From an uncultured Acidobacteriota bacterium (GTDB lineage: Bacteria > Acidobacteriota > Vicinamibacteria > Vicinamibacterales > 2-12-FULL-66-21), in assembly GCA_963844245.1 (NCBI GenBank), contig CAWJNJ010000006.1, positions 392,142 through 456,141 on the forward strand: 64,000 bases of DNA, in the 5' to 3' direction. Shown here piece by piece: positions 2,868 through 61,651 of the stretch; within the stretch, counting starts at the first letter, position 1, and each line of letters opens with the position of its first letter. Made by a program: the position numbers and the translations under genes. The notes beneath the pieces are model-generated. The model was given only the letters and a program-made list of their open reading frames with translations, had not been told where the DNA came from and searched no databases.

Positions 2868-5825
2868 ATGGCGCACGACTGGATCGCGGTCCGCGGGGCT
2901 CGCGTCCACAACCTCAAGAATGTGGATGTCGACATCCCACGCGACAAGCTCGTCGTTCTGACGGGTCTGTCGGGTTCGGGAAAGTCGTCGCTTGCCTTCG
3001 ACACGATCTACGCCGAGGGCCAGCGGCGTTATGTCGAATCGCTGTCGTCGTACGCGCGCCAGTTTCTCGAGCAGATGGAGAAACCGGACGTCGACCTGAT
3101 CGACGGCCTGTCGCCCGCGATCGCCATCGAACAGAAGACCACGGGGTCCAATCCGAGATCGACGGTCGGGACCGTCACCGAGATCTACGATTACCTGCGG
3201 CTGCTCTTTGCCAACATCGGTGTGCCGCACTGTCACCTGTGCGGACGCGAGATCGCCTCGCAGTCGCTCGAGCGGATCGTCGACATGGTGATGCTCGCAC
3301 CGAACGACGAACGCGTGAACGTGCTGGCCCCGATCGTCCGCGGTCGCAAGGGTGAGTTCAAGAAGGAGCTCGCCGGGCTGCGGGCGAAGGGCTTTACCAA
3401 GGTCCGCGTCGATGGCCAGATGCGCTCGCTCGACGAAGACCTGAAGCTCGATCGCCGTCGAAACCATACGATCGAGATCGTTGTCGATCGACTGGTGATC
3501 AAGAGCGGCGTCGAACGGCGGTTGGCCGAGTCGGTCGAGATCGCCCTCAACCTCGCCGAAGACATCGTCATCATCAACACGCTCGATGGCGGCGACCGGC
3601 TGTTTTCGCGACGCCTGGCGTGCACCTTCTGCGGCGTGAGCATGCCCGAGATGACGCCGCGCGCATTCTCGTTCAACTCGCCCCATGGCGCCTGCCAGGA
3701 GTGCCAGGGTCTCGGGGCTGTTTACGACTTCGATCCGGGCAGGCTCGTGCCTGACGAGTCGCTGACGCTGCAGGACGGCGCGATTGCGCCATGGGCCAAA
3801 GGCGACCGCAAGCTGGTGCGCGAAGCGCTCGCCGCGCTGGGCCGCACGTTCGGGATCGACCTCACGCTGCCCTTCAGCCGACTGCCACGAAAGCTTCGCG
3901 ACCTCGTGTTCTTTGGTGCCCCTGCCGCGAAGCGTGAGAGCCCGGCAGCGGCGCGCCCGGAGCGGAGCGCGAGCGAGCGCAGGGCGCCAGGCGGGGCGCA
4001 GGGGGCCCCGCCGAAGAAAAATGACCCGTTTGGCGCCGGCTTCGAGGGTCTGATTCCCAACCTGCGGCGTCGCTATGAGGAGGGCACCTGGGCGGACCAG
4101 GAGGACCTCGAACCCTATCGCTCGTTGCGCCCGTGCCCGACCTGCAGCGGCGAGCGGCTGAAGCCGCAGAGTCTCGCGGTCCGGGTCAAGGGACGCACCA
4201 TCTCCGAGTACGTCAACCTTGCGATCAGTGAAGCTGTCCATGTCTTCGACAGCATCGAGCTCACCGACCGCGAGACGCTGATCGCCAGCCGCATCATGCG
4301 CGAGATCCGCGACCGCATCCACTTTTTGGACGATGTGGGCGTCGGGTATCTGAGCCTGGCACGGAGCGCCGCTACGCTCTCTGGCGGTGAGGGACAGCGC
4401 ATCCGTCTCGCGACGCAGATCGGTTCGAACCTCACCGGCGTGTTGTATGTGCTGGACGAACCGTCGATCGGGCTGCATCAGCGTGACAACCGTGCCTTGC
4501 TCGCGACGCTGGCCCGGCTCCGGGATCTGGGCAACACCGTCCTGGTCGTCGAACACGATGAGGAAACGATCCGGACGGCGGACTACGTCGTCGATCTTGG
4601 GCCCGGCGCGGGCGAGCACGGTGGCGAATTGATTTTCCAGGGGCCGCCCGCTGGCCTGCTGGCGAACGGACATGGTTCCCTGACGGGCGCCTATCTGCGT
4701 GGTGACAAGAGCATCCAGACGCCCGGCAGCCGCCGCAAGCCGACCCGCGGTGAGATCGTGATTCGCGGCGCGCGCGCGAACAACCTGAAGGATGTGGACG
4801 TTTCGATTCCGCTCGGTCTTCTGACCACGGTGACGGGCGTCAGCGGATCGGGAAAGTCCACGCTGATCAACGAGATCCTCTACCGCTCGCTCGCTCGCAC
4901 CTTCTTCCGCGCCGGCGACGAGCCGGGTGCACATTCCGGGATCGAAGGCATCGACCAGCTCGACAAGGTGATCCAGATCGATCAGTCACCCATCGGGCGT
5001 ACGCCTCGGTCAAACCCGGCGACTTATACGGGACTGTTCACGTTCATCCGCGACCTGTTCGCGATGCTGCCCGACGCAAAGGCGCGAGGGTTCCGGCCGG
5101 GTCGCTTCTCGTTCAACGTGAAAGGCGGCCGGTGCGAGGCCTGCCAGGGTGACGGCGTCATCGCGATCGAGATGCACTTCCTGCCGAACGTCTACGTCAC
5201 CTGCGAACAGTGCAAGGGCCGCCGCTACAATCGCGAGACGCTCGAGATCCAGTACCGCGGCAAGTCGATCGCCGATGTTCTCGATCTCACCATCGACCAG
5301 GCGTTGCCGCTGCTCGAGAACTTCCCGCCGATCGCCAACAAGCTCCGGACGCTGCAGGACGTCGGCCTTGGCTATCTGCAGCTCGGCCAGTCGGCAACGA
5401 CGTTGAGCGGCGGTGAAGCACAACGCGTAAAGCTGTCGAAAGAGCTGTCACGCCGGGGCACGGGCCGCACGCTCTACATTCTCGACGAGCCGACGACAGG
5501 GCTTCATTTCGCCGACACGCACAAGCTGCTCGACGTCCTGAACAAGCTCGTGGAGCAGGGCAACACCGTCGTGATCATCGAGCACAACCTCGACGTGATC
5601 AAGTCGGCGGACTACGTGATCGACCTCGGGCCAGAGGGCGGCGCCGGGGGCGGCAGGATTATCGCGACAGGGACTCCTGAGAAAGTAGCAATGAGCCGAG
5701 AATCCTTTACGGGGCGTTTCCTCGCCGAGGTTCTCGGAGCCCAGGGTGAGGTCAATGCCTCCGAAACAGCCAGCCTGCCGGCGGTGGTTCCGACTGCGGG
5801 CAAGAGGCGACGCAAACATGCGTGA
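2868..5825 (+). CDS. uvrA: Excinuclease ABC subunit A
   Basis: 985-aa ORF. Two ABC modules are present ([14 protein letters not shown] / [12 protein letters not shown]; [12 protein letters not shown] / [12 protein letters not shown]), plus the CxxC zinc modules typical of UvrA. Confidence 0.97.
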
Positions 5826-6032
5826 CACCGGCATCGGCAGCAACCTGGGAGGTGGTATGTCTTCATCAGGCACACACAAGCTGCTGTGGTTCATCAGCCA
5901 CACTTTTGGCTTTCAAAGCTGTGGCTCGCAAGCCACAACCGCGCCGAAGTCGACCGATGGTCAGTCTGGATGCCATAAGCTAAGGCATTCGGGTACAATG
6001 ACTTACACCACATTTTTCGCCGCGCAAAAGTA

Positions 6033-6086: not shown

Positions 6087-7004
6087 ATGAACGCTCAGCG
6101 CACCCTTCGCCGCCACGTCTCCTGCACCGGGATCGGACTTCATTCCGGCAACAAGGTCACTCTTTCACTGAAGCCGGCCCCGGCTGATTACGGCATCCGT
6201 TTTCACCGCACCGACCTCGGCGTCGAGATACCTGCGACCATCACACACCTCGGCGGCATGCAGCAGTATCAGACCGGCCTGGCCCGCGAGGCGGTCTCGG
6301 TCGAGACCGTCGAGCACCTGCTGGCCGCGCTCAGCGCCCTTCGGATCGACAACGCGATTGTCGAAGTCAACCACCCCGAAGTGCCGATCATGGACGGCAG
6401 CGCCGCTCCGTGGGTGCATCTGATCCTGAACGAGGCGGGTGTCAAGCAATTGTCCGCGCCGCGCCGGTACCTCAAGGTCCTGCGCCCGATTTCGCTGGCC
6501 CAGGGCGACAAGCGCATCTCCCTGTATCCCGCGGATCATCTCAAGGTCACCTACAGCATCAGCTTCGATCATCCGCTCCTGCGTCACCAGTCGCGGACGA
6601 TGAAGATCACAGAAGAGAGCTTCGTCGAAGATATTGCTCCGGCGCGCACCTTCGGTTTCCTCAAGGAAGTCGAGATGCTGCGTCAGCGCGGCCTCGCCCT
6701 GGGCGGGTCGCTCGACAACGCCATCGTTCTCGGCGAGACGGGCGTTCTGAACAACACGCTCCGCTTCGAGGACGAGTTCGTGCGTCACAAGATCCTCGAC
6801 GCGATCGGCGACCTGTCGCTCGTGGGTCACCCGGTGATCGGTCACCTGGTGGCGCACCGTGGCGGCCACGCGTTGCACACGGCATTCGCCGCCAAGATCC
6901 TGGAAGAGCGGGATGCGTGGAAGCTGGTGGAAGCGCCCGTGGACGCCGAGGTCACCCGGCCAGTGGGATCCCGGGTTGGTGCGACGGCCCGTCTGGCGAA
7001 CTAG
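6087..7004 (+). CDS. lpxC: UDP-3-O-acyl-N-acetylglucosamine deacetylase
   Basis: 305-aa ORF with LpxC hallmarks GIGLHSG, VEHLLAAL, HKILDAIGDL and HRGGHALH. SD-like AGAGAGG lies upstream. Confidence 0.95.
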   Translation: MNAQRTLRRHVSCTGIGLHSGNKVTLSLKPAPADYGIRFHRTDLGVEIPATITHLGGMQQYQTGLAREAVSVETVEHLLAALSALRIDNAIVEVNHPEVPIMDGSAAPWVHLILNEAGVKQLSAPRRYLKVLRPISLAQGDKRISLYPADHLKVTYSISFDHPLLRHQSRTMKITEESFVEDIAPARTFGFLKEVEMLRQRGLALGGSLDNAIVLGETGVLNNTLRFEDEFVRHKILDAIGDLSLVGHPVIGHLVAHRGGHALHTAFAAKILEERDAWKLVEAPVDAEVTRPVGSRVGATARLAN

Positions 7005-37627: not shown

Positions 37628-38398
37628 ATGAGACGGTTTTTCAGGATTGAGCACGGCGGGCAGGCGCGGCATGCGATCGAAGAGCAGGGTGAGTGGCGGT
37701 TGCTCGAGGGCGACATCTTCGGCGACTACACGGCCGGGGAGGCGATCGCGTCAACCGGGCACACGCTCCTGGCGCCGGTGCTGCCGTCCAAGATCGTGTG
37801 TGTTGGCCTGAACTACAAAGACCACGCCCTGGAGACCAACAAGCCGCTGCCGCCTGAGCCGCTGATCTTCATCAAACCGTCGACATCGGTGATTGGTCCC
37901 GCCGAGGCGATCGTTCTGCCGGACGGCATCGGGCGTGTCGATCACGAAGCGGAGTGCGCCGTGGTGATCGGCCGGCGCGCGACTCGCGTCAGCGAAGCGG
38001 ACGCCATGAGCTACGTGCTCGGGATCACGTGCGTGAACGACGTCACCGCGCGCGAGCTGCAGAACAAGGGCGCCGGCTATACGCGCGCGAAAGGGTTCGA
38101 CACGTTTGCGCCGGTGGGGCCGTGTATCGCGCAGGGCCTCGACTACAACTCGGCCAACGGATTGACGGTCGAGGGCTGGGTCAACGGCGAGAAGCGGCAG
38201 GCTTCGTCCACCCGGGAGTTGATCTTCCGCATCCCGATGTTGATCGCCTACATTTCCGCCAACATGACGCTGCTGCCCGGTGACATCATCTCCACGGGCA
38301 CGCCTTCGGGTATCGGTCCACTGCATGCCGGCGACACCGTCACCATCAAGGTCGAAGGTGTCGGCGAGCTCACGAATTCAGTACGGGAACAATCATGA
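37628..38398 (+). CDS. Fumarylacetoacetate hydrolase (FAH) family protein
   Basis: 256-aa ORF with [24 protein letters not shown] and [14 protein letters not shown] blocks typical of FAH-fold hydratases and decarboxylases. Confidence 0.88.
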
Positions 38399-39042
38399 AA
38401 ATCTTCATCGACTCGGGGAACATCAAGGAAATCGAAGGCCTCATGCCGCTCGGCATCATCGACGGGATCACGACCAATCCGTCGCTGCTCGCCAAGGAGC
38501 CCGGCGACTACCGGGAAAATCTCAAGACGATCTGCCGGATCGTCAAGGGGCCCACGAGCGCCGAAGTCGTCGCGCTCGACGCTGAAGGCATGATTCGCGA
38601 GGGCCGCGAGCTTGCCGCACTCGACGAGCACATCGTCGTCAAAGTGCCGTTCACGCGCGAGGGTGTCAAGGCGTGCAAGGCGCTCTCCTCTGAAGGCAAA
38701 CGCGTCAATGTGACGCTGATTTTTTCAGCCGCGCAGGCACTGCTGGCCGCAAAGGTGGGGGCGACGTATGTCAGCCCGTTCGTCGGCCGGCTCGACGACA
38801 TCGCCACCTCCGGCATGGGGTTGATCTCGGACATTGTCGAGATCTTCGAGAACTACCAGTTCACGACCGAGATCCTCGTGGCGTCGACGCGCGGGCCGAT
38901 GCACATCGTCGAAGCGGCCCGTCTCGGTGCCGACATCTGCACCTGCCCGGCGTCGGTGATCGAGGCGCTCTTCAAGCATCCGCTCACCGACATCGGCCTC
39001 GAGAAGTTCCTGAAAGACTGGGAAAAATCACAGGCGAAGTAG
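38395..39042 (+). CDS. tal: Transaldolase, short fructose-6-phosphate-aldolase-like subfamily
   Basis: 215-aa [31 protein letters not shown] (Schiff-base Lys)..[11 protein letters not shown]. The ATG overlaps the upstream stop (ATGA). Confidence 0.92.
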
Positions 39043-39077
39043 GCCCGACCTTGTAGGCCCGACCTTCAGGTCGGGCG
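39039..39077. repeat. Palindromic element: half copy plus full copy of GTAGGCCCGACCTTCAGGTCGGGCG
   Basis: GTAGGCCCGACCTT (39039-39052) is repeated directly at 39053-39066, then completed to the hairpin GCCCGACC-ttca-GGTCGGGC (39057-76). The 25-mer at 39053-39077 is identical to 61147-61171. It overlaps the tal stop codon. Confidence 0.9.
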
Positions 39078-49889: not shown

Positions 49890-50516
49890 ATGATGCGAAT
49901 GTTCGTTACCCTGCTGATCGCGATCGCGCTTGCCCCTGCCGTGCGCGCCGACGTGATCGACCGCATTCTTGCGACCGTTGGCGGAGCGCTGATCCTGCAG
50001 TCCGACGCGGTGGCGGCGGCGAGGTTCGGCTTCGTGGAGTTACCGCCACAGGGTGATCGTCTTCAATTCACGCTGGATCGGCTGATCGAGCGGCGGCTGA
50101 TGCTCATCGAGGTGGATCGCTATGCGCCGCCCGAGCCGCCCCGCTCGCTGCTCGACGAACGGATGCAGCAGATCGACCAGCGAATCGGATCCGGCGAGCG
50201 GCTCGACGCGCTGCTCAGGGAGACAGGATTCACCGTCGAACAGCTCCGCGTCTACGTGCGCGACGATCTGCGCATCGAGAGCTATGTGCAGCAGCGTTTC
50301 GGCACGGCCTATCGTCCGTCCGAAGAGGAGATCTTCGCCCACTACCGGTCGCACGAGTCCGAGTTCATGCGGGACGGCAAGGTGCGCCCGTTCGAGGAAG
50401 TGCGCGAGTTCGCGCGAACGTCGCTGCTGGCCGAGCGTCAGGCCGCGGCGGTGCGTGAATGGATGGCTGGCCTTCGCCGCCGCACCGAAGTGAACGTCCT
50501 CTACCTCGGGCGCTAG
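49890..50516 (+). CDS. SurA N-terminal-domain periplasmic chaperone-like protein (no PPIase domain)
   Basis: Signal peptide MMRMFVTLLIAIALAPAVRA, then VIDRILATVGGALILQSD..LDRLIERRLMLIE, which is typical of the SurA N-domain. AGGAGG at 49881-49886. Start at 49890 or 49893. Confidence 0.6.
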   Translation: MMRMFVTLLIAIALAPAVRADVIDRILATVGGALILQSDAVAAARFGFVELPPQGDRLQFTLDRLIERRLMLIEVDRYAPPEPPRSLLDERMQQIDQRIGSGERLDALLRETGFTVEQLRVYVRDDLRIESYVQQRFGTAYRPSEEEIFAHYRSHESEFMRDGKVRPFEEVREFARTSLLAERQAAAVREWMAGLRRRTEVNVLYLGR

Positions 50517-52300
50517 CGCGCGACCTCGACTCGCACGTAGTCGATACCCGCCGACAGCAGGCGGCCATCGCCGCCGAGGCCGACGTCCACCGGCCGCTGC
50601 GTCCGGCTGAACTCCAGCGTCAGCCGGTTCACGCCGGCACGCCATACCGATTCTTCCACCTCGAAGACAACTGTCGTCCACTCTGTCGGAACAGCAACCG
50701 GCGCCTGTCGTCGTCCATTGACGATGGGCGTCATCATTTGCGGTGGTGCACCCGGATAGTTGAATGCCTGGGCGCGAACCTGCACCCGCAGCGGGGCGGC
50801 GTGATCGAGCGCGATCAGCAGCGTCGCGGGCGAGAAGGCCCAGCGGAACGTTACGCCGCCGCCTTCCTCCGCACCGTGCCAGCCGTCCTCGAGCCAGAGT
50901 TCGTCGGCACTGCCGATGTCGATCCGTCCATAAGGCCTGAGCTCGTCGCCGAGAAAGCGTTGCGATGACAGCAGGTCGTAGGAGCCGATCGGCAGATCGT
51001 TGCGGAGAGCGAAGACGAGACTCACCGGGTAGGTGAAGGGATTCCCGAACCATCGGTGGAAGGCCCGGGCCTGGTGCGCGCCGGCTTCGCCGAACGAGGT
51101 GGCTTCGCCGATGCGAACGTGGCCGTCCTGCGCCGCGCTCATCAAGGTGAGGTTCCAGAGCACCAGCAGGGCCCCGCCTGATGCGACGGTTCGGAGAGGA
51201 TGCCGCTCGACGACCCGGGTGAGGGTCTGGACCAATGCGGCCACGCCCAGTGTGAACAGCGGGAGCGTGCCCTCGAAGCGGCGTCCGCCGTAGCCGGCGC
51301 TGCCCCACCAGTCCTGGATCGACGCGTTGAAGTAGGTCATCACCGCGATGGCCGCGAGCGCCGGCACACCGATCCACGGCCTGGCGACGGCAAAGACGAC
51401 GAGCCCAATCGCACCGAGGTAGAGGACCGGGGACCAGCTGAAGAGGCCATTGCGCGCCGACCAGAGGATGTCGACGAGCTGCGGGTCCCACCAGCGGATC
51501 TGCGGTCCGACCGGCGATACCGCAAGGAAGGAACCATAGATCGACTTCCACGCGATCATCTGCGGGATGAATCCAACCACCGCACAGGCCGTGAAGATGG
51601 CCCCGACGGCCAGGGTACCAGTCACCACCGGCCGGTCGCGCCGGCGCGCCGCCGCCACGAGCATCGTCAGGGCCTCGTATGCAGGCAGGATGGCGAACAA
51701 CGCGTTCTGCCAGCGGATCAGGGTGATGAATCCGGCGATGAGACCGAGCAGCGCCCACTGCAGACGCGTTCGACGTCCGTGGGTTGCCGCCCACATCCAG
51801 GTGAACCCGGCGACGCCGGCCATCGACGGGGCATGCGTCATGCTCGGTTCCTTCACCATGTACCAGAGCATGAAGGACCCGCAGATCACGAGCGCAACCG
51901 CCCCCGCCGCGAGACGCCGGTCGAAGAAGATCGTGGTCAGCCGATAGGTGAACCAGCAGCCAAGCAGGGCGTAGAACAATCCGGCGATGCAGACCGCCTG
52001 CCGGTACGGATACGAGATGCCGTTCGTGCTGACATCGGCGCCAGTCGCCGCGAGCCGGTTCGCAATCGGGTGCGCGGCGGCGAAAAACGGCGCCCATACG
52101 ATCGCAGGTCCGATCGTCCACGCCGATTGCGCGTAGCCGGTCGGGGTCGGATTGAAGAGGTGAGCCTTGTCGCCGAGACCGAGCAGCTTGTAGTCGTTGC
52201 TGAACTCGACATCCCGATCGAACACGATCGAGCGCAGGTAGGCGAAATAGTAGAAGCCGTCGCTCTGAAGGCGCGCGCCGAGGTGAAGCTGGGCCGCCAC
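50513..52300 (-). CDS. Unassigned polytopic membrane protein, GT-C-like, with a C-terminal soluble beta-rich domain (paralogue B)
   Basis: 595-aa ORF from GTG 52300 with more than 10 TM segments. The first-loop motif is LQSDGFYYFAYLRSIVFDRDVEFSNDY. The in-frame upstream sequence (..DVLDGRARSRRIAPFLFAALFATG) has no start codon. The true N-terminus probably begins at GTG 52556 (GTGA overlap with the upstream stop) and joins through a one-base insertion between about 52300 and 52420. Confidence 0.6.
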   Translation of the reverse strand: MAAQLHLGARLQSDGFYYFAYLRSIVFDRDVEFSNDYKLLGLGDKAHLFNPTPTGYAQSAWTIGPAIVWAPFFAAAHPIANRLAATGADVSTNGISYPYRQAVCIAGLFYALLGCWFTYRLTTIFFDRRLAAGAVALVICGSFMLWYMVKEPSMTHAPSMAGVAGFTWMWAATHGRRTRLQWALLGLIAGFITLIRWQNALFAILPAYEALTMLVAAARRRDRPVVTGTLAVGAIFTACAVVGFIPQMIAWKSIYGSFLAVSPVGPQIRWWDPQLVDILWSARNGLFSWSPVLYLGAIGLVVFAVARPWIGVPALAAIAVMTYFNASIQDWWGSAGYGGRRFEGTLPLFTLGVAALVQTLTRVVERHPLRTVASGGALLVLWNLTLMSAAQDGHVRIGEATSFGEAGAHQARAFHRWFGNPFTYPVSLVFALRNDLPIGSYDLLSSQRFLGDELRPYGRIDIGSADELWLEDGWHGAEEGGGVTFRWAFSPATLLIALDHAAPLRVQVRAQAFNYPGAPPQMMTPIVNGRRQAPVAVPTEWTTVVFEVEESVWRAGVNRLTLEFSRTQRPVDVGLGGDGRLLSAGIDYVRVEVAR

Positions 52301-52552: not shown

Positions 52553-54055
52553 TCACGGACGGACTTTCACGATCCGCAGCTCAGGGCCTGGATGCTCATC
52601 GCTGGCCGTGAACCGCGCGACCTCCTGCCCGCGCGTGAAGAGCGTCATGTAGGCGGTGAACTCCTCGCGGTACGTGGACGGCGACGCCAGGTACGGTCCA
52701 TAACACTGCGACGATGCGATGAGGTAGTCGGCGCGGGCCTCGACGTACTGGTCGTAGGTCAACTGGCGCAATTGACGCATGCGGCGACTCTCGTAGCGTG
52801 CCGGGAAGGTGAGGTGATTACCCTCCTGCACGATGCGGGATCCCTCCGGCGCGTTCTCGAGTATCCAGCGATAGGCGAGATCGGTGGTCGAGGTCTTGGC
52901 GATGATGCGGTCGAAACTCAGCGCCGTTGCCGCCGGCGGACCGAGCAGCGCAATGGTCAAGCCGGCGATGAGGGCAGTGCGAACACCGCGGGGAAACTGG
53001 TACCGCCGCAGGAGGCTCACGCCCGAGATCACCGCCGCGGCCGCCAGCACGCACAGCATCGGCACGATCGGCAGCATGTACCGCGCATAGATGATGCGCT
53101 GCTCCGCCACGATCAGGAAGTACGGGATCGTGAAGACCAGCGCGACGGCCCACGGTACCCGGCCCGGCCCGCCGACGGCTCGCACCAGACCCATGAGCAG
53201 CCCGCCGGTGATGAGCAGCATCCCCGGCAGCCCGAACTGCAGGCGGAGGTGCTTCAAGTAGATGATGATGCCGGCCTCCGGCGGCGGCGGACCGTTGCGG
53301 TACTCAGCCGTCAGACTGGCGAAGCGATCCAGAAATCCCGGCAGGTCCAGGATGGTGAACGGCGCGGCAACAAAGAAGGCCACGGCCGCGGCGCCGATCG
53401 CCGCCAGCGCGCAGACCATGCGTGACGGCCGCGCGGCGGGCGTCATCCAGCAGGCCAGCAGCGGCATCAGCAGCGCCAGCCCGCCGTTGTACTTGACTGC
53501 GGCTGCGAGGCCGGCCATTGCGCCGGCCCACACAAACGCCCGCACGACCGGGCGCTCGTGCGCCGTCAGCGCCATCAGCATGGTCAGCGCCACGAAGAAT
53601 GTCAGAGGGATGTCGGTCAGAACGTAGTGCGAGTAGCGGACGTGCAGGGGCATCAGCGCCATCAGCGCCGCGGCCAGCAGCGCGTGTCGTGCGCCCCAGC
53701 GCAGGCCGATCCGGAACACGACCAGCACCGTCGCGACGCCGAACGCCGCCGTTACGGCCCGCCCCCACAGGTAGAAGCTGTCGCTGGTGACGTGCGCGAG
53801 CGAGTCCCAGGCGCCGGTCACGGATCCGGCGATGAAGCGGACCACCGAAACGAGAAACTGGATGTAGATGAGGAGCTGGCCGTAGTCGAAAAAGTGAGGA
53901 TTGAGCGTCCCCGCCTTCATCATGCGCAGGGCGCGTTCGACGATTTCCGGTTCGTCAACGCTGAGGGCGTGCGGAATCCCATGCCCGAGCGCCCAGAAGC
54001 GCAGCGCTGCCGCGACCGCGAGAACGAGCAGCAGCCCGAGACGGGACGGACGCAT
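52553..54055 (-). CDS. Glycosyltransferase family 39 (ArnT/PMT-like) polytopic membrane protein
   Basis: MRPSRLGLLLVLAVAAALRFWALG..LSVDEPEIVERAL first-loop acidic motif, about 12 TM segments and a C-terminal periplasmic domain. ATG 54055 is preceded by GAGG at 8 nt. The track ORF starts at TTG 54088. Confidence 0.78.
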   Translation of the reverse strand: MRPSRLGLLLVLAVAAALRFWALGHGIPHALSVDEPEIVERALRMMKAGTLNPHFFDYGQLLIYIQFLVSVVRFIAGSVTGAWDSLAHVTSDSFYLWGRAVTAAFGVATVLVVFRIGLRWGARHALLAAALMALMPLHVRYSHYVLTDIPLTFFVALTMLMALTAHERPVVRAFVWAGAMAGLAAAVKYNGGLALLMPLLACWMTPAARPSRMVCALAAIGAAAVAFFVAAPFTILDLPGFLDRFASLTAEYRNGPPPPEAGIIIYLKHLRLQFGLPGMLLITGGLLMGLVRAVGGPGRVPWAVALVFTIPYFLIVAEQRIIYARYMLPIVPMLCVLAAAAVISGVSLLRRYQFPRGVRTALIAGLTIALLGPPAATALSFDRIIAKTSTTDLAYRWILENAPEGSRIVQEGNHLTFPARYESRRMRQLRQLTYDQYVEARADYLIASSQCYGPYLASPSTYREEFTAYMTLFTRGQEVARFTASDEHPGPELRIVKVRP

Positions 54056-54094
54056 GTCGCTCGCCTCGCGCCATTCGCGTTCAGCCAAGTAAAT

Positions 54095-55504
54095 TCAAGC
54101 CTCGTTACTCACGTGGGGCTCTGCCCCACACCCCGGCTCGGTCGCTCGCGGGGCCCCGACACCCCGCGCCGCTCCCTCGCAGGCGCGCCCTGCGCGCCGG
54201 GAGCGTGTGGTTTCTGAGCACGCTGTTTGGGGAAAATCGTAGCTTACTACAGGCACCGGTCTGGACAGCAGACGCTGGTAGAGGCGGATCGTCTCCTGGA
54301 CCGCGGCGGTCCACGAGAAGTCACGCTCCACGATCGCGCGCCCCTCGATCCCCATCTCCGTCAGCCGCTCCCGATCCTCGAGCGCACCGCTGATCGCGGC
54401 CGCGAGGGCGGCGGGATCGCCGGCTGCGACGATCCAGCCGTTGACGCCGTTCTTGACCTTGTCGGGCAGCCCCCCGGCATCCGTGACGACGCACGCCCGT
54501 CGGTGCGCCATCGCCTCCAGGGTGACCAGCGAGCTGCCTTCGTAGAGGGTGGGATGCACGAACAGGTCGGCTGCCTCGTACCACGAATGGAGCTCGCGGT
54601 CCGGCGCCTTGCCGGCAAACAGGACGTTGCTGGTGAGCCGCAGCTCCGACAGCAGTAGTTCCAGCTGCCCGCGGAACGGGCCGGCGCCGACGATAACCCA
54701 GCGCCACCGGCCGTGCGCCAGCCGTCCAGAATGCTCGCGCAGCGCAGCAAGTGCCTGGGCGAGCAGGTGAAAGCCCTTGTTCGCTTCGAGCCGGCCGACA
54801 CTCAACAGCACCACTTCATCGGTAGCAATGCCGGCCGCCTCGCGCACCCGGACGCCGTCGGCCGGATGCGCCATCGCGTCCACGTCCGCCAGATCCAACG
54901 CGTTTGGGATGGTCGCGATCTTGTCGTCGGCAACGCCCAGGTGCTGGCGGACCGCCGGCTCGAGGGCGCGGTCGGTGGCAATCACGGCGTCCGCCCGGCG
55001 CGCGCACGCGATGACGGCGCGTCGAAGTGGTAAATACGCAGCCCGCTTCAGCCTCGCACGGGACGGATCGGTGGCGCCAAACTCCTCGAGCCCCTGCGGA
55101 TTCAGAACCAGGGGCGCTGACAGCGAGGGCCGCCGTCTCGCGTAGCCGAGCACGCTCGCGCCGAAGCCGTGGACGATGTCCACCTCGCCGCGGGCGACCA
55201 TCTCGGCGGCGAGCATGCCGGCGCGGTAGCCGAAGAGGGGATAGGCGGTGCTCCGGTCGAGCACCGTCGTGCCACGCCGTCCAGCGAAGGGGAACGTCCG
55301 ATAAGGCACGAACGCGAGCTGCACGTCGGGGTGGACCGCGTCGGCGTCGGCCGGTGCGTGCGGCGTGCGTGTAATGAGCGTGACGCGGACGCCGTTTCTC
55401 GCCAGGTGCCGAGCGAGATCGTAGACGCTGCGCTCGAGGCCGCCGAGCCCGTGAAGCGGGAACACCGAACGCGCCGTGATCGCGACGCGGAGCGGGGAAC
55501 TCAC
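54095..55504 (-). CDS. GT4-family glycosyltransferase
   Basis: GT-B fold: N-terminal FPLHGLGGLERSVYDLARHL and C-terminal YEGSSLVTLEAMA..VVTDAGGLPD. The last 56 codons (54095-54262) have non-coding-like codon bias. The true stop is probably TAG-TAA at 54244-54249, reached by removing one base at 54252-54253. Confidence 0.82.
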   Translation of the reverse strand: MSSPLRVAITARSVFPLHGLGGLERSVYDLARHLARNGVRVTLITRTPHAPADADAVHPDVQLAFVPYRTFPFAGRRGTTVLDRSTAYPLFGYRAGMLAAEMVARGEVDIVHGFGASVLGYARRRPSLSAPLVLNPQGLEEFGATDPSRARLKRAAYLPLRRAVIACARRADAVIATDRALEPAVRQHLGVADDKIATIPNALDLADVDAMAHPADGVRVREAAGIATDEVVLLSVGRLEANKGFHLLAQALAALREHSGRLAHGRWRWVIVGAGPFRGQLELLLSELRLTSNVLFAGKAPDRELHSWYEAADLFVHPTLYEGSSLVTLEAMAHRRACVVTDAGGLPDKVKNGVNGWIVAAGDPAALAAAISGALEDRERLTEMGIEGRAIVERDFSWTAAVQETIRLYQRLLSRPVPVVSYDFPQTACSETTRSRRAGRACEGAARGVGAPRATEPGCGAEPHVSNEA

Positions 55505-58972: not shown

Positions 58973-60156
58973 GATGCGTGCACGACGTCTTTCAAGAGGG
59001 CTTCGAGGCGTTCGGCCCGACGTGGCCAGGTGTAAGCGGCCGCGTCGCTCGATGCGGTGTGTGCGAGACGTCCGGCCAGCGCCGCGTCATTCATCAAGGT
59101 GCGCATGGCGCGCGCGATCGCGTCCGCACTTCCCGGCTCGACCAGTAGCGCGTTCTCACCGTCCCGCAGTACTTCCCTGATCGCCGGCAGGTCAGAGGCA
59201 ATGATGGCCCGGCCGGCCGCCATGTACTCGAACAGCTTGAGCGGTGACGTGAAGTGCGTCGAGATCGCCGAGGCCGGGTTCGGCAGGACCAGCATCGTCG
59301 CTTTCGCCAGGTGGCCGGGGACCATCGCGGGTGGGATGAGCCCCGTGAACGTCACCCGCTCTTCGATGCCGAGCGTGTCGGCCAACGCCGTCACGCGGGC
59401 GAGGTCAGGCTCGGCGGCGTGGCCGCCGACGATCAATCCACGAACCTCTGGTACGAGCGCGATCGCCTGCAACAGGATGTCGACGCCCTTCCACGCGTAG
59501 AGGTGCCCGGCGTAGCCGGCGACAGGCGCGAGACCGGCAGAGTGTGGTGGCGGTGGCGGTGTCGACGCCCTCATGCCGTCCGGCACAACCGCGAGCTTCT
59601 GTCGTGGCCCAAGCCGCCGCTGCAATTCGTCGGCAAGCGCCTGCGTAATGGTGACGTAGCCGTCCGCACTCTGCCACACGGCCGACTCTCGATCGGCGAG
59701 GCGCTTCAGTTTGGCCGGGCTCGCGGGCTTGGCGGTTGCGACCAGCTCGGGCAGAGCTGCCGCGACGTCCGGCGCGTAGCCGTGCGATTCGTAGACGACC
59801 GGCGCTCGCATGCCGGCCGGCATCATCAGCAGCGCGGCGGCGACCCCAAGGTCACGCGTGAGGATCACGTCGGCGCGCGCCTTGCCGAACGCTCGCCCGA
59901 ATACGAACGACATGTAACCAACGCGCGCGAGCAAGCCGGCGCCCTTCGGCGCGTTGGCCCGTTCGATGATCAGCGACTTGATCGACGGCAGTCCGTAGAA
60001 CTCGAACGGATCCCGGACCGGGCTGTGCGTGTCGGGCTTCACGACCAGGTGCACGGTGTGGCCGCGCTCGGCGAGCGCATGGCACGTTTCCATGGTCTGG
60101 ATGCCATTGGCCCGTTCGAGCGGGAAGCGGATATCGGCGAAGTACAGGATCCGCAT
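58969..60156 (-). CDS. GT4-family glycosyltransferase
   Basis: MRILYFADIRFPLERANGIQTMETCHALAERGH.. N-terminus and C-terminal SPLKLFEYMAAGRAIIASDLP. Start at ATG 60156 (the track ORF extends spuriously to 60876). It overlaps the upstream stop by 1 nt. Confidence 0.85.
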   Translation of the reverse strand: MRILYFADIRFPLERANGIQTMETCHALAERGHTVHLVVKPDTHSPVRDPFEFYGLPSIKSLIIERANAPKGAGLLARVGYMSFVFGRAFGKARADVILTRDLGVAAALLMMPAGMRAPVVYESHGYAPDVAAALPELVATAKPASPAKLKRLADRESAVWQSADGYVTITQALADELQRRLGPRQKLAVVPDGMRASTPPPPPHSAGLAPVAGYAGHLYAWKGVDILLQAIALVPEVRGLIVGGHAAEPDLARVTALADTLGIEERVTFTGLIPPAMVPGHLAKATMLVLPNPASAISTHFTSPLKLFEYMAAGRAIIASDLPAIREVLRDGENALLVEPGSADAIARAMRTLMNDAALAGRLAHTASSDAAAYTWPRRAERLEALLKDVVHAS

Positions 60157-61565
60157 CAATGCTGCTTCGGCTGCGATTCGTAGAACGACCCGCGGTCGGT
60201 GAGATAGCGATAGGCCAGCGACGGCCCCGTCAGTGGCAGGGTCACGAACGCGTGATAGGCGTTGCGGCCGGGCTCGAGCCGCTGCCGATCCATCAGCCGG
60301 GTTGCAAACTGCGCCATCAACGCGAGGTTCCACCAGGTGCACACGGCGATCGCGACAGCGAGACCGACGGCGAGCCTGTTGGTCAGCCACGACGAACGCT
60401 CGGGAACGCGTTGCCGGCCGGCCCTTTCCGAACGAGCCGCTGCCGTCCACAGTGCGGCCAGGCCGATGACGAGGATGATCGTCAGGTTCACGAAGCGCCG
60501 CTGGCCGAACGCGCCCGCGACCGTCCACGACTCGACACTGCCGGCGACGTAGACCTGCGAGGCAACCATGATCGCGAGGCTGACGGCAACGATCCTTTCG
60601 CGGACGAAGAAGAGACCGATCAGCGCCAGTATGGCCAGCGGCGTCCAGAAGAAGAGTCCGTGGTGCGGTGATGCCAGCACCTGCAGTCCATGCGGTGCGT
60701 ACCAGAACATTTTCCGTTGTACGTGCTCGGCGGGACCGGGATAGCCGTTGAGGGCGTTGTAGGCGAGCAGCTGTGGCAGATAGCCGAGGAGGGTCCCGGT
60801 CACGCCAGCCCGGCGGCGATCGGAACGCGAGAGCGTGGGCGCACCTGCGAGGCAGACCTGGCGACGCGCCGACCACGCGAAATCGAGCGCCGGTCCGAGC
60901 GCGAGGAAGACGTCCTGCTCACGGACCATGGCGAGCAGCGCCGCACAGAGTCCGAGCGCGAATGCTCCGCCGGCGGACCATGATCGGCGCACGTGCAACC
61001 AGACGTTGACGAAGAGCGCCACTGCGAAGGCCGAGCACGCATGCGAGAACGGTGGCGCGACGTACATGTAGAAGAGCAGCGGTGTGCCAAGCCAGACCGC
61101 CAGACCGGCGGCAAAGGCCCCGCTGGCCGGGCGAATGCTTCCATCAGTAGGCCCGACCTTCAGGTCGGGCGACGACCCGATCACCCGTGCGGCGCGGATC
61201 GACAGCAGGATGGCGAGGAACCCGTAGAACGCGGATCCGTAGGCCACCGCACGGACATACGGCGTCGTGAAGCCGTTCGCCTCGTAGCTGTCACCCGCTC
61301 GAGTCCACGCATCGGCCGCCGCGTAGAACGGCGACCACAGGATCGCCGCGCCCACCGTTCCGTAGTTCACACGTCGTCCGGCCGCGGTCTCGCGCTCGAG
61401 AAAGGTCTCGTGAAAGCCCCCCGACTGGGCGATGTTGCGGTCGTAGAAGTAGCGGTATTCATTCTCGAACGAGACGTCCCGGTCGAAATAGAGCGATCGC
61501 AGGTAGGAGAAATACTGCACCTCATCGGACGAGTAGAGCCGGGCCGTGACCGCCGGCAGCGACAC
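60156..61565 (-). CDS. Unassigned polytopic membrane protein, GT-C-like (paralogue A)
   Basis: 469-aa ORF from GTG 61565. The first-loop motif is LYSSDEVQYFSYLRSLYFDRDVSFENEY. The in-frame upstream sequence back to the CPBP stop (..LIALLDRLARFFLLTRREFLALALLFL) looks coding but has no ATG, GTG or TTG, so the start is unresolved. It contains an in-frame palindromic element at 61147-61171. Confidence 0.6.
   Translation of the reverse strand: MSLPAVTARLYSSDEVQYFSYLRSLYFDRDVSFENEYRYFYDRNIAQSGGFHETFLERETAAGRRVNYGTVGAAILWSPFYAAADAWTRAGDSYEANGFTTPYVRAVAYGSAFYGFLAILLSIRAARVIGSSPDLKVGPTDGSIRPASGAFAAGLAVWLGTPLLFYMYVAPPFSHACSAFAVALFVNVWLHVRRSWSAGGAFALGLCAALLAMVREQDVFLALGPALDFAWSARRQVCLAGAPTLSRSDRRRAGVTGTLLGYLPQLLAYNALNGYPGPAEHVQRKMFWYAPHGLQVLASPHHGLFFWTPLAILALIGLFFVRERIVAVSLAIMVASQVYVAGSVESWTVAGAFGQRRFVNLTIILVIGLAALWTAAARSERAGRQRVPERSSWLTNRLAVGLAVAIAVCTWWNLALMAQFATRLMDRQRLEPGRNAYHAFVTLPLTGPSLAYRYLTDRGSFYESQPKQH
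61147..61171. repeat. Palindromic element copy embedded in frame in a coding sequence
   Basis: GTAGGCCCGACCTTCAGGTCGGGCG is identical to 39053-39077. On the coding (minus) strand it reads SPDLKVGPT within an approximately 14-aa segment that is absent from paralogue B. Confidence 0.9.
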
Positions 61566-61651
61566 GAGGAACAGGAGCGCGAGAGCCAGAAACTCGCGTC
61601 GTGTGAGCAGGAAAAAGCGGGCGAGGCGATCCAGAAGGGCGATGAGGAATG

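Follow-up and report, generated by a model that had tools for sequence, protein, structure and literature searches.

How does a palindromic DNA repeat that elsewhere lies between genes come to be read as part of a membrane protein? This question is raised by a 64,000-nt stretch of contig CAWJNJ010000006.1 from an uncultured bacterium of the Vicinamibacterales (Acidobacteriota), the whole of which we call the window. Here, the 25-bp element GTAGGCCCGACCTTCAGGTCGGGCG occurs once downstream of the transaldolase gene tal and once inside a gene for a polytopic membrane protein, gene A. Our analysis assigns the element to a family of GTAG-tagged repetitive extragenic palindromic (REP) sequences, and very probably an inverted doublet of such repeats was inserted in frame into the loop-coding DNA of gene A, after which one of the two arms was lost.

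Two identical copies of a GTAG-tagged palindrome

Exactly two copies of GTAGGCCCGACCTTCAGGTCGGGCG are present in the window, at 39053-39077 (+) and 61147-61171 (+), and no third match was found there even when up to three mismatches were allowed. With 0.00 matches expected by chance (100 dinucleotide shuffles), the claim of the initial annotation that an identical 25-mer occupies two sites is confirmed. The element consists of GTAG followed by the stem-loop GCCCGACC-TTCA-GGTCGGGC, with a G+C-rich stem of 8-9 bp and a TTCA loop, and both window copies carry the GTAG tag 5' of the palindrome. Its relaxed form is GTAGGCCCGACCT-N3-AGGTCGGGC; the pattern with a 4-nt gap, CCGACCTNNNNGGTCGG, gave no meaningful match, the true gap of the element being 3 nt. 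A scan of the window for other GTAG-tagged hairpins returned the two known copies and chance hairpins only. The features at the tal site are the following.

38395..39042 (+): tal, transaldolase / fructose-6-phosphate aldolase family (Pfam TAL_FSA, E = 1.6e-59)
39039..39052 (+): tandem 5' half-copy of the REP, GTAGGCCCGACCTT, directly preceding the full copy
39053..39077 (+): extragenic REP copy, exact match, in the 43 nt that separate tal from a carboxyltransferase gene transcribed in the same direction

The 25-mer had been described as overlapping the stop region of tal. It does lie downstream of tal, but the tal stop codon, TAG at 39040-39042, is held by the half-copy GTAGGCCCGACCTT and not by the exact 25-mer, which begins 11 nt past the stop. 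The tal-side copy represents the ordinary extragenic state of the repeat, with the GTAG of the half-copy giving the TAG stop.

Half-copies similar to GTAGGCCCGACCTT were also seen in locus L004 of the metagenome-assembled genome (MAG) MFD10007.bin.2.204, where five 31-nt units (cacggatcGTAGGCCCGACCTTTAGTAGTGa/g) at 5860-6013 stand before a full REP just upstream of a gene for a REP-associated tyrosine transposase (RAYT). Such tandem half-copies could be products of hairpin slippage or of abortive RAYT cleavage and joining.

The gene A copy is read in frame within a predicted loop

The second copy and its host gene are described by four features.

60156..61565 (-): gene A, encoding a polytopic membrane protein of 469 aa with a predicted GT-C-like fold; intact open reading frame (ORF); no Pfam or NCBIfam family
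61147..61171 (+ in GTAG-to-hairpin orientation, the gene being on -): REP copy inside gene A, exact match, translated as S132-PDLKVGP-T140
61128..61175 (-): the loop of gene A that carries the insert, at about residues 131-146, comprising the 25-nt REP and about 20 nt of spacer-like sequence (DNA alignment with the orthologous loci L119-L126)
50513..52300 (-): paralogue B, 30% identical to gene A across some 410 aa, with an equivalent loop without the repeat

Read on the minus strand, the copy gives tCG CCC GAC CTG AAG GTC GGG CCT ACt, that is SPDLKVGPT, at residues 132-140 of the intact 469-aa ORF, just as the initial annotation had stated. Four of the six frames of the element are stop-free and the remaining two contain TAG or TGA. 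Compared with the empty-site orthologues L122, L123 and L126 described below, the loop of gene A is longer by 45 nt (15 codons), with insert boundaries that are uncertain by about 6 nt. The earlier figure of about 14 extra residues was close in size, although paralogue B, against which it had been estimated, is with 30% identity a poor yardstick.

In an AlphaFold model of gene A computed with 39 orthologues as input (predicted TM-score, pTM, 0.86), the repeat-encoded residues are placed in a non-helical segment (132-146) between the helices 101-131 and 147-160, and the predicted local distance difference test (pLDDT) is below 50 at residues 136-140. The insert is presumably translated and roughly neutral. 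As a hairpin in mRNA sense, the single REP has a minimum free energy of -18.7 kcal/mol in the context of gene A (z = -2.2).

Pfam and NCBIfam searches of the gene A protein returned no family, and its homologues, which number in the thousands, bear no other name than hypothetical protein (Acidobacteriota/Vicinamibacterales). To the left and right of the repeat, the ORF aligns colinearly with its orthologues at a mean column identity of 58% (39 sequences), and the gene order Rce1-like > A > GT4 glycosyltransferase is conserved around it. GT-C enzymes have conserved acidic residues in their first extracytoplasmic loop; in gene A, the acidic residues D14 and E15 are invariant among the aligned orthologues. 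Foldseek matched the model to STT3, ArnT, PglB, AftA and Emb structures in the PDB (6s7o_A, 5f15, 6gxc_A, 8if8_B, 7bvc_B) with a probability of 1.0 at TM-scores of only 0.39-0.49. On this predicted structure the label “GT-C-like” is reasonable but not proven.

The reading frame of gene A continues without a stop beyond its GTG start, over the upstream stretch 61566-61650 (-), and there encodes ...RFFLLTRREFLALALLFLV. This peptide aligns with the transmembrane helix at the N-terminus of longer orthologues such as P0056 (MLFLLSRRELLALTLLFLL). This upstream stretch contains no in-frame ATG, GTG or TTG. Either a non-canonical start is used or the first helix is absent from the copy in the window.

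Empty, occupied and decayed states at the orthologous site

Eight close orthologue loci of gene A with 79-90% nucleotide identity were fetched as DNA (L119-L126), and all eight share the Rce1-like > A > GT4 synteny. Together with the window they display the following states of the site.

L122, L123, L126 (P0007, P0008, P0010): empty site, ...CGG CTG ATT GGC GGC ACA CGT GGC GCC TTC...
L120 (P0003): perfect in-frame inverted doublet, CGCCCGACCTGAAGGTCGGGCCTAC + 20 nt + GTAGGCCCGACCTTCAGGTCGGGCG, exceeding the empty site by 72 nt
L121 (P0005): left arm decayed, right arm intact
Window and L119 (P0002): a single arm, the left one, and some 20 nt, with 45 and 39 nt extra, respectively
L124, L125 (P0004, P0006): single copies, decayed

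As RNA, the doublet of L120 would fold into a 22-bp hairpin of -56 kcal/mol (z = -6.9). The syntenic orthologues P0007-P0012 are without the repeat segment, which speaks against a peptide that orthologues encode irrespective of the repeat family. With relatives in which the site is empty and a repeat family that is widespread (see below), the central proposal of the initial annotation, namely that an ORF has taken up a dispersed palindromic repeat in frame, is well founded. The presence/absence polymorphism in these aligned loci also bears, indirectly, on the mobility of the repeat.

The repeat family in related genomes

One genome per GTDB species was scanned with the bare palindrome GCCCGACCTKCAGGTCGGGC, without GTAG, as query. 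The scan returned at least 118 blocks of 8 kb, nearly all from Vicinamibacterales/Acidobacteriota MAGs, many of them from the same assemblies such as MFD10007.bin.2.204. At three mismatches or fewer, at least 217 copies were listed in 115 blocks of related MAGs, so that the element is by no means unique to the two loci of the window. Among the matches listed, 139 of the 159 copies with a TTCA loop have GTAG adjoining the stem at its 5' end and 10 have GCAG, and the family consensus is cGTAGGCCCGACCTTCAGGTCGGGCGtg. The tag was absent from the query, and its place next to the stem is the anatomy by which GTAG-tagged REPs are defined.

The listed copies are frequently arranged in groups: within 150 nt of one another there are 41 inverted pairs, with spacers mostly of 16-45 nt, and 32 direct pairs. 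At 4400-4800 of locus L057, at least 8-11 REPs follow one another in tandem with a period of 47 bp and near-identical spacers of 22-23 nt (..accacgaatgaccgaaatgtgc..). Because its spacers are conserved, this array is not CRISPR-like; it resembles a bacterial interspersed mosaic element (BIME) or a REP cluster. About 4% of the at least 217 listed copies were verified as intragenic and in frame. By the sequence characters of tag, hairpin, doublets and clusters, together with a putative cognate RAYT in a relative, we assign the family to the GTAG-tagged REPs.

The sole non-Acidobacteriota assembly with several true TTCA-loop copies among the matches listed is the Gemmatimonadaceae MAG SMAG_U13238 (DATLXE), in which the copies (L043, L064, L074, L075) sit on short contigs of 1.8-7.3 kb. 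These could be mis-binned Vicinamibacterales contigs or could reflect true sharing of the family across phyla.

A REP-associated transposase in a relative

A RAYT is a HUH/Y1 tyrosine transposase encoded by a single-copy gene. It is believed to act on single-stranded DNA and so to spread and maintain REP families, often with the inverted REP doublet (REPIN) as the mobile unit. In L004, an ORF of 189 aa at 6033-6602 matches the NCBIfam equivalog model NF047646, REP-associated tyrosine transposase, with 92.5 bits (cutoff 80) and Pfam Y1_Tnp with E = 6.6e-10, and contains the motifs DHVH, WQ and YILDNP. The first lead to this gene came from an E. coli YafM sequence, used as a probe only; the match was then verified by Pfam and NCBIfam. 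Repeats of the same family border the RAYT gene on its 5' side (at 5184, 5308 and 5860-6013) and on its 3' side (6590-6746), and its stop codon falls inside a REP loop. A tblastn search with the L004 RAYT found no RAYT in the 64-kb window nor in any other fetched locus.

In-frame copies in other genes and recurrent inserts in the gene A loop

The listed copies were screened for an open frame and coding-like composition on both sides, followed by a Pfam check, and a copy was counted only if the REP was flanked on either side by a Pfam domain or lay within a domain match. Eight further proteins with verified in-frame REPs were obtained in this way.

LigD (doublet); UvrC (three units); MetRS; PrmA
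PD-(D/E)XK nuclease; AMP-binding/ACP/acyltransferase fusion; TMEM260-like glycosyltransferase; Ser/Thr kinase-TonB_C protein

Each of the four stop-free frames occurs among the in-frame copies, PDLKVGPT being one of the readings. The heuristic based on frame-specific G+C content (GC3) both over-calls and under-calls coding regions. Putative REP-bearing genes in L026, L090, L096 and L035 look spurious and were rejected, and L044, L075 and L089 were not counted. In-frame palindromic repeats had been considered rare outside Rickettsia. They are less rare than was assumed, given the eight further Pfam-verified genes described here and the several phyla listed in a published survey of tagged REPs (Di Nocera, De Gregorio & Rocco, BMC Genomics 2013; PMC3733652).

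The loop of gene A itself is highly variable. Between the conserved motifs LLSIRAAR and WLGTPL, the 120 best homologues have 14 to 95 residues, and 14-15 residues are the common and presumably basal state. In L127 (4001-5524) and L128 (5001-6398), which correspond to P0016 and P0014, the same loop carries a different long palindrome of CACAGAAGAAAACACAG-like units, which would fold at -57 and -79 kcal/mol and reads ...HTEETQ... / ...FSSVFSS. About 11 of the 120 orthologues carry such “GNTEETQ” peptides, with a segment of up to 95 residues in P0075. Since the palindrome of L127 and L128 is unrelated to the REP family, the loop has been colonised independently by unrelated palindromic DNA.

Repeat-like inserts were also seen in further loops of gene A orthologues (alignment columns 300-340 and 430-470), namely GGAPPPPALARGRRSAALPSGRSLGPQA in P0013 and P0016, and ...VGAGFSRPA in P0113. 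The latter looks like another GTAG-REP family read in frame.

Proposed history of the gene A insertion and alternative explanations

We propose the following history. An inverted REP doublet of about 70 nt would have inserted into the DNA for a short unstructured loop between two transmembrane helices, presumably by single-strand transposition of the RAYT type. Gene A would have stayed open because the element has no stop in four of its six frames and the net gain in length is a multiple of three. The insert, translated as SPDLKVGPT, would have been tolerated in the loop as a near-neutral addition, and the window lineage would later have lost one arm, leaving one intact REP and about 20 nt.

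Some observations weigh against this history. The window holds only two REP copies and a half-copy, without a RAYT, and its source genome is known here from 64 kb; a search for this genome among the fetched loci gave no match. The 20 nt that follow the window REP fail to align with the spacer of the L120 doublet, and for this reason we infer, rather than observe, the descent of the window copy from a doublet. Finally, in a neighbour-joining tree of codon columns, from which the loop and all gapped columns had been removed, the insert-bearing orthologues were monophyletic in 0 of 500 bootstraps. As the insert-bearing genes are not monophyletic, either one ancestral gain and at least one precise loss, or at least three independent gains have taken place.

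The second of these options would make the site an insertion hotspot, at which several independent REP or REPIN insertions hit the same position of gene A orthologues. We regard this as possible, if somewhat doubtful. Besides the polyphyly, it is favoured by the position of the pristine L120 doublet in one clade with its close relative L124, which has a decayed single copy, and with the empty sites of L122, L123 and L126 (99% bootstrap), and by the quite different long palindrome in the same loop of L127 and L128. However, all six REP-bearing orthologues share the position, orientation and frame of the left arm, and the three empty-site genes were monophyletic in 23% of the bootstraps, so that one gain and one precise loss could account for the pattern. 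Precise excision is expected from single-strand transposition of the IS200/IS605 type.

Alternatively, the intragenic REP could be kept by selection, either for an mRNA hairpin that acts in translation pausing, RNase processing or mRNA stability, or for a useful loop peptide. The sequence conservation speaks for such a role: the REP is identical at 25 of 25 positions in the window, L119 and the left arm of L120, while the surrounding gene is only 89.7% (L119) and 81.1% (L120) identical at the nucleotide level, and an equal neutral divergence would give a value of 0.811^25 or about 0.005. The hairpin is also stable at the above-mentioned -18.7 kcal/mol, but its z-score is only -2.2. Moreover, the site is empty in L122, L123 and L126, L121 (left arm), L124 and L125 have decayed copies, the loop is hypervariable (14-95 aa) and predicted to be disordered, and recent or repeated insertion, or conversion from other copies, explains the identity to the consensus equally well. 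We consider maintenance by selection quite unlikely. A single origin, for which the shared placement of the left arm in all six orthologues speaks, and a history of renewed insertion, conversion or selection, for which the pristine copies of L120 and the 25/25 identity between L120 and the window speak, both fit the data.

The initial annotation had compared the element with Rickettsia palindromic elements (RPEs). A kinship with RPEs would agree with the outcome, a palindromic repeat in frame within apparently functional genes (PMC3733652), yet it is very improbable, as the tag is GTAG in 139 of the 159 copies, the family is RAYT-associated and RPE-1 is longer (PMC3733652). The element is not an RPE, from which tag and length as described in PMC3733652 set it apart, and GTAG-tagged REPs with a RAYT, such as that in L004, are the right comparison.

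Finally, although repeats in MAGs can misassemble and spurious long ORFs are common at 65% G+C, it is barely credible that the second copy is a chance match, an assembly chimera or part of a pseudogene or spurious ORF, because zero chance matches are expected, the ORF is colinear with its orthologues in conserved synteny and a copy is present at the same site in five independent assemblies.

A second repeat family in the window

Apart from the REPs, a G+C-rich repeat unit of about 85 bp, tggggctctgccccacaccccggctcggtcgctcgcgggg..., is located at 54115-54198, in the spacer upstream of a PMT_2-type GT-C gene (52553-54088, -). Three tandem copies of this unit at 93% identity are present in L063 (Acidobacteria RIFCSPLOWO2_12_FULL_66_21), and weaker ones in L096, L032 and L114. 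A tRNA was ruled out as the identity of the unit.

Comparison with known systems and significance

GTAG REPs, their RAYT (TnpA-REP) and REPIN doublets were reportedly described by Nunvar in 2010 and by Bertels and Rainey in 2011, and the RPEs are said to go back to Ogata and colleagues in 2000. The family described here shares with GTAG REP/RAYT systems the 5' GTAG, the G+C-rich stem of 8-9 bp and the 4-nt loop, the inverted doublets and clusters, and a RAYT gene flanked by repeats; in related MAGs its copies are also dispersed and apparently mostly extragenic. A TAG stop supplied to the upstream gene and occasional in-frame copies in linkers or loops are also common to both. It differs in its Vicinamibacterales host, in its own stem and loop sequence, in its target, the loop of a polytopic GT-C-like membrane protein, and in the whole series of empty, doublet, singlet and decayed states at one orthologous site.

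The survey of Di Nocera and coworkers (PMC3733652) distinguishes GTAG- and CGTC-tagged REP superfamilies and describes that GTAG REPs flank RAYT genes, form head-to-head and tail-to-tail dimers as well as clusters, and give TAG stops to flanking ORFs by their GTAG termini. Intragenic REPs are reported there from several phyla, in linkers and loops and notably in DNA-repair genes and tRNA synthetases. Its acidobacterial examples concern other repeats, of the terminal inverted repeat (TIR) type. The present stem/loop sequence and its peptides were not found in the text or supplements of PMC3733652 nor in the literature searched, and the same holds, for PMC3733652 and the literature searched, for Vicinamibacterales as a host clade of GTAG REPs.

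RPEs resemble the element in being palindromic repeats in frame within apparently functional ORFs, inserted in surface-exposed, tolerant segments. In contrast to the 25-nt, GTAG-tagged and RAYT-associated element described here, RPE-4 and RPE-6 of R. conorii are counted among the intragenic CGTC repeats, which apparently have no transposase of their own, and RPE-1 is a palindromic insertion of greater length (PMC3733652). The 47-bp array of L057 is reminiscent of E. coli BIMEs with their regularly spaced, alternating or tandem REPs and conserved spacers, whose sequences are, however, unrelated to the element.

We speculate that palindromic mobile repeats in Vicinamibacterales are a regular generator of loop and linker diversity in proteins. 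This idea, to which we give a low probability, is based on the two unrelated palindromes in one loop, the at least nine proteins with a translated REP and the consensus copies that persist despite about 19% divergence of the host gene. Such consensus copies could result from RAYT-driven re-insertion or conversion, or from selection on a hairpin in the coding mRNA.

The insertion into gene A is an event of a documented kind and reveals no new mechanism. For annotators, REP-derived peptides are a recognisable signature by which repeat-derived segments and spurious ORFs in Vicinamibacterales MAGs can be flagged. Beyond a routine case stand the full series of states at one site, the repeated colonisation of one membrane-protein loop by unrelated palindromes and the consensus copies within a diverging gene. 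GTAG-REP/RAYT systems and their intragenic copies are hereby extended to uncultured soil Acidobacteria, in which the natural series of an empty site, an in-frame doublet, a single arm and decayed copies documents the entry and erosion of REPs and REPINs within coding sequence.

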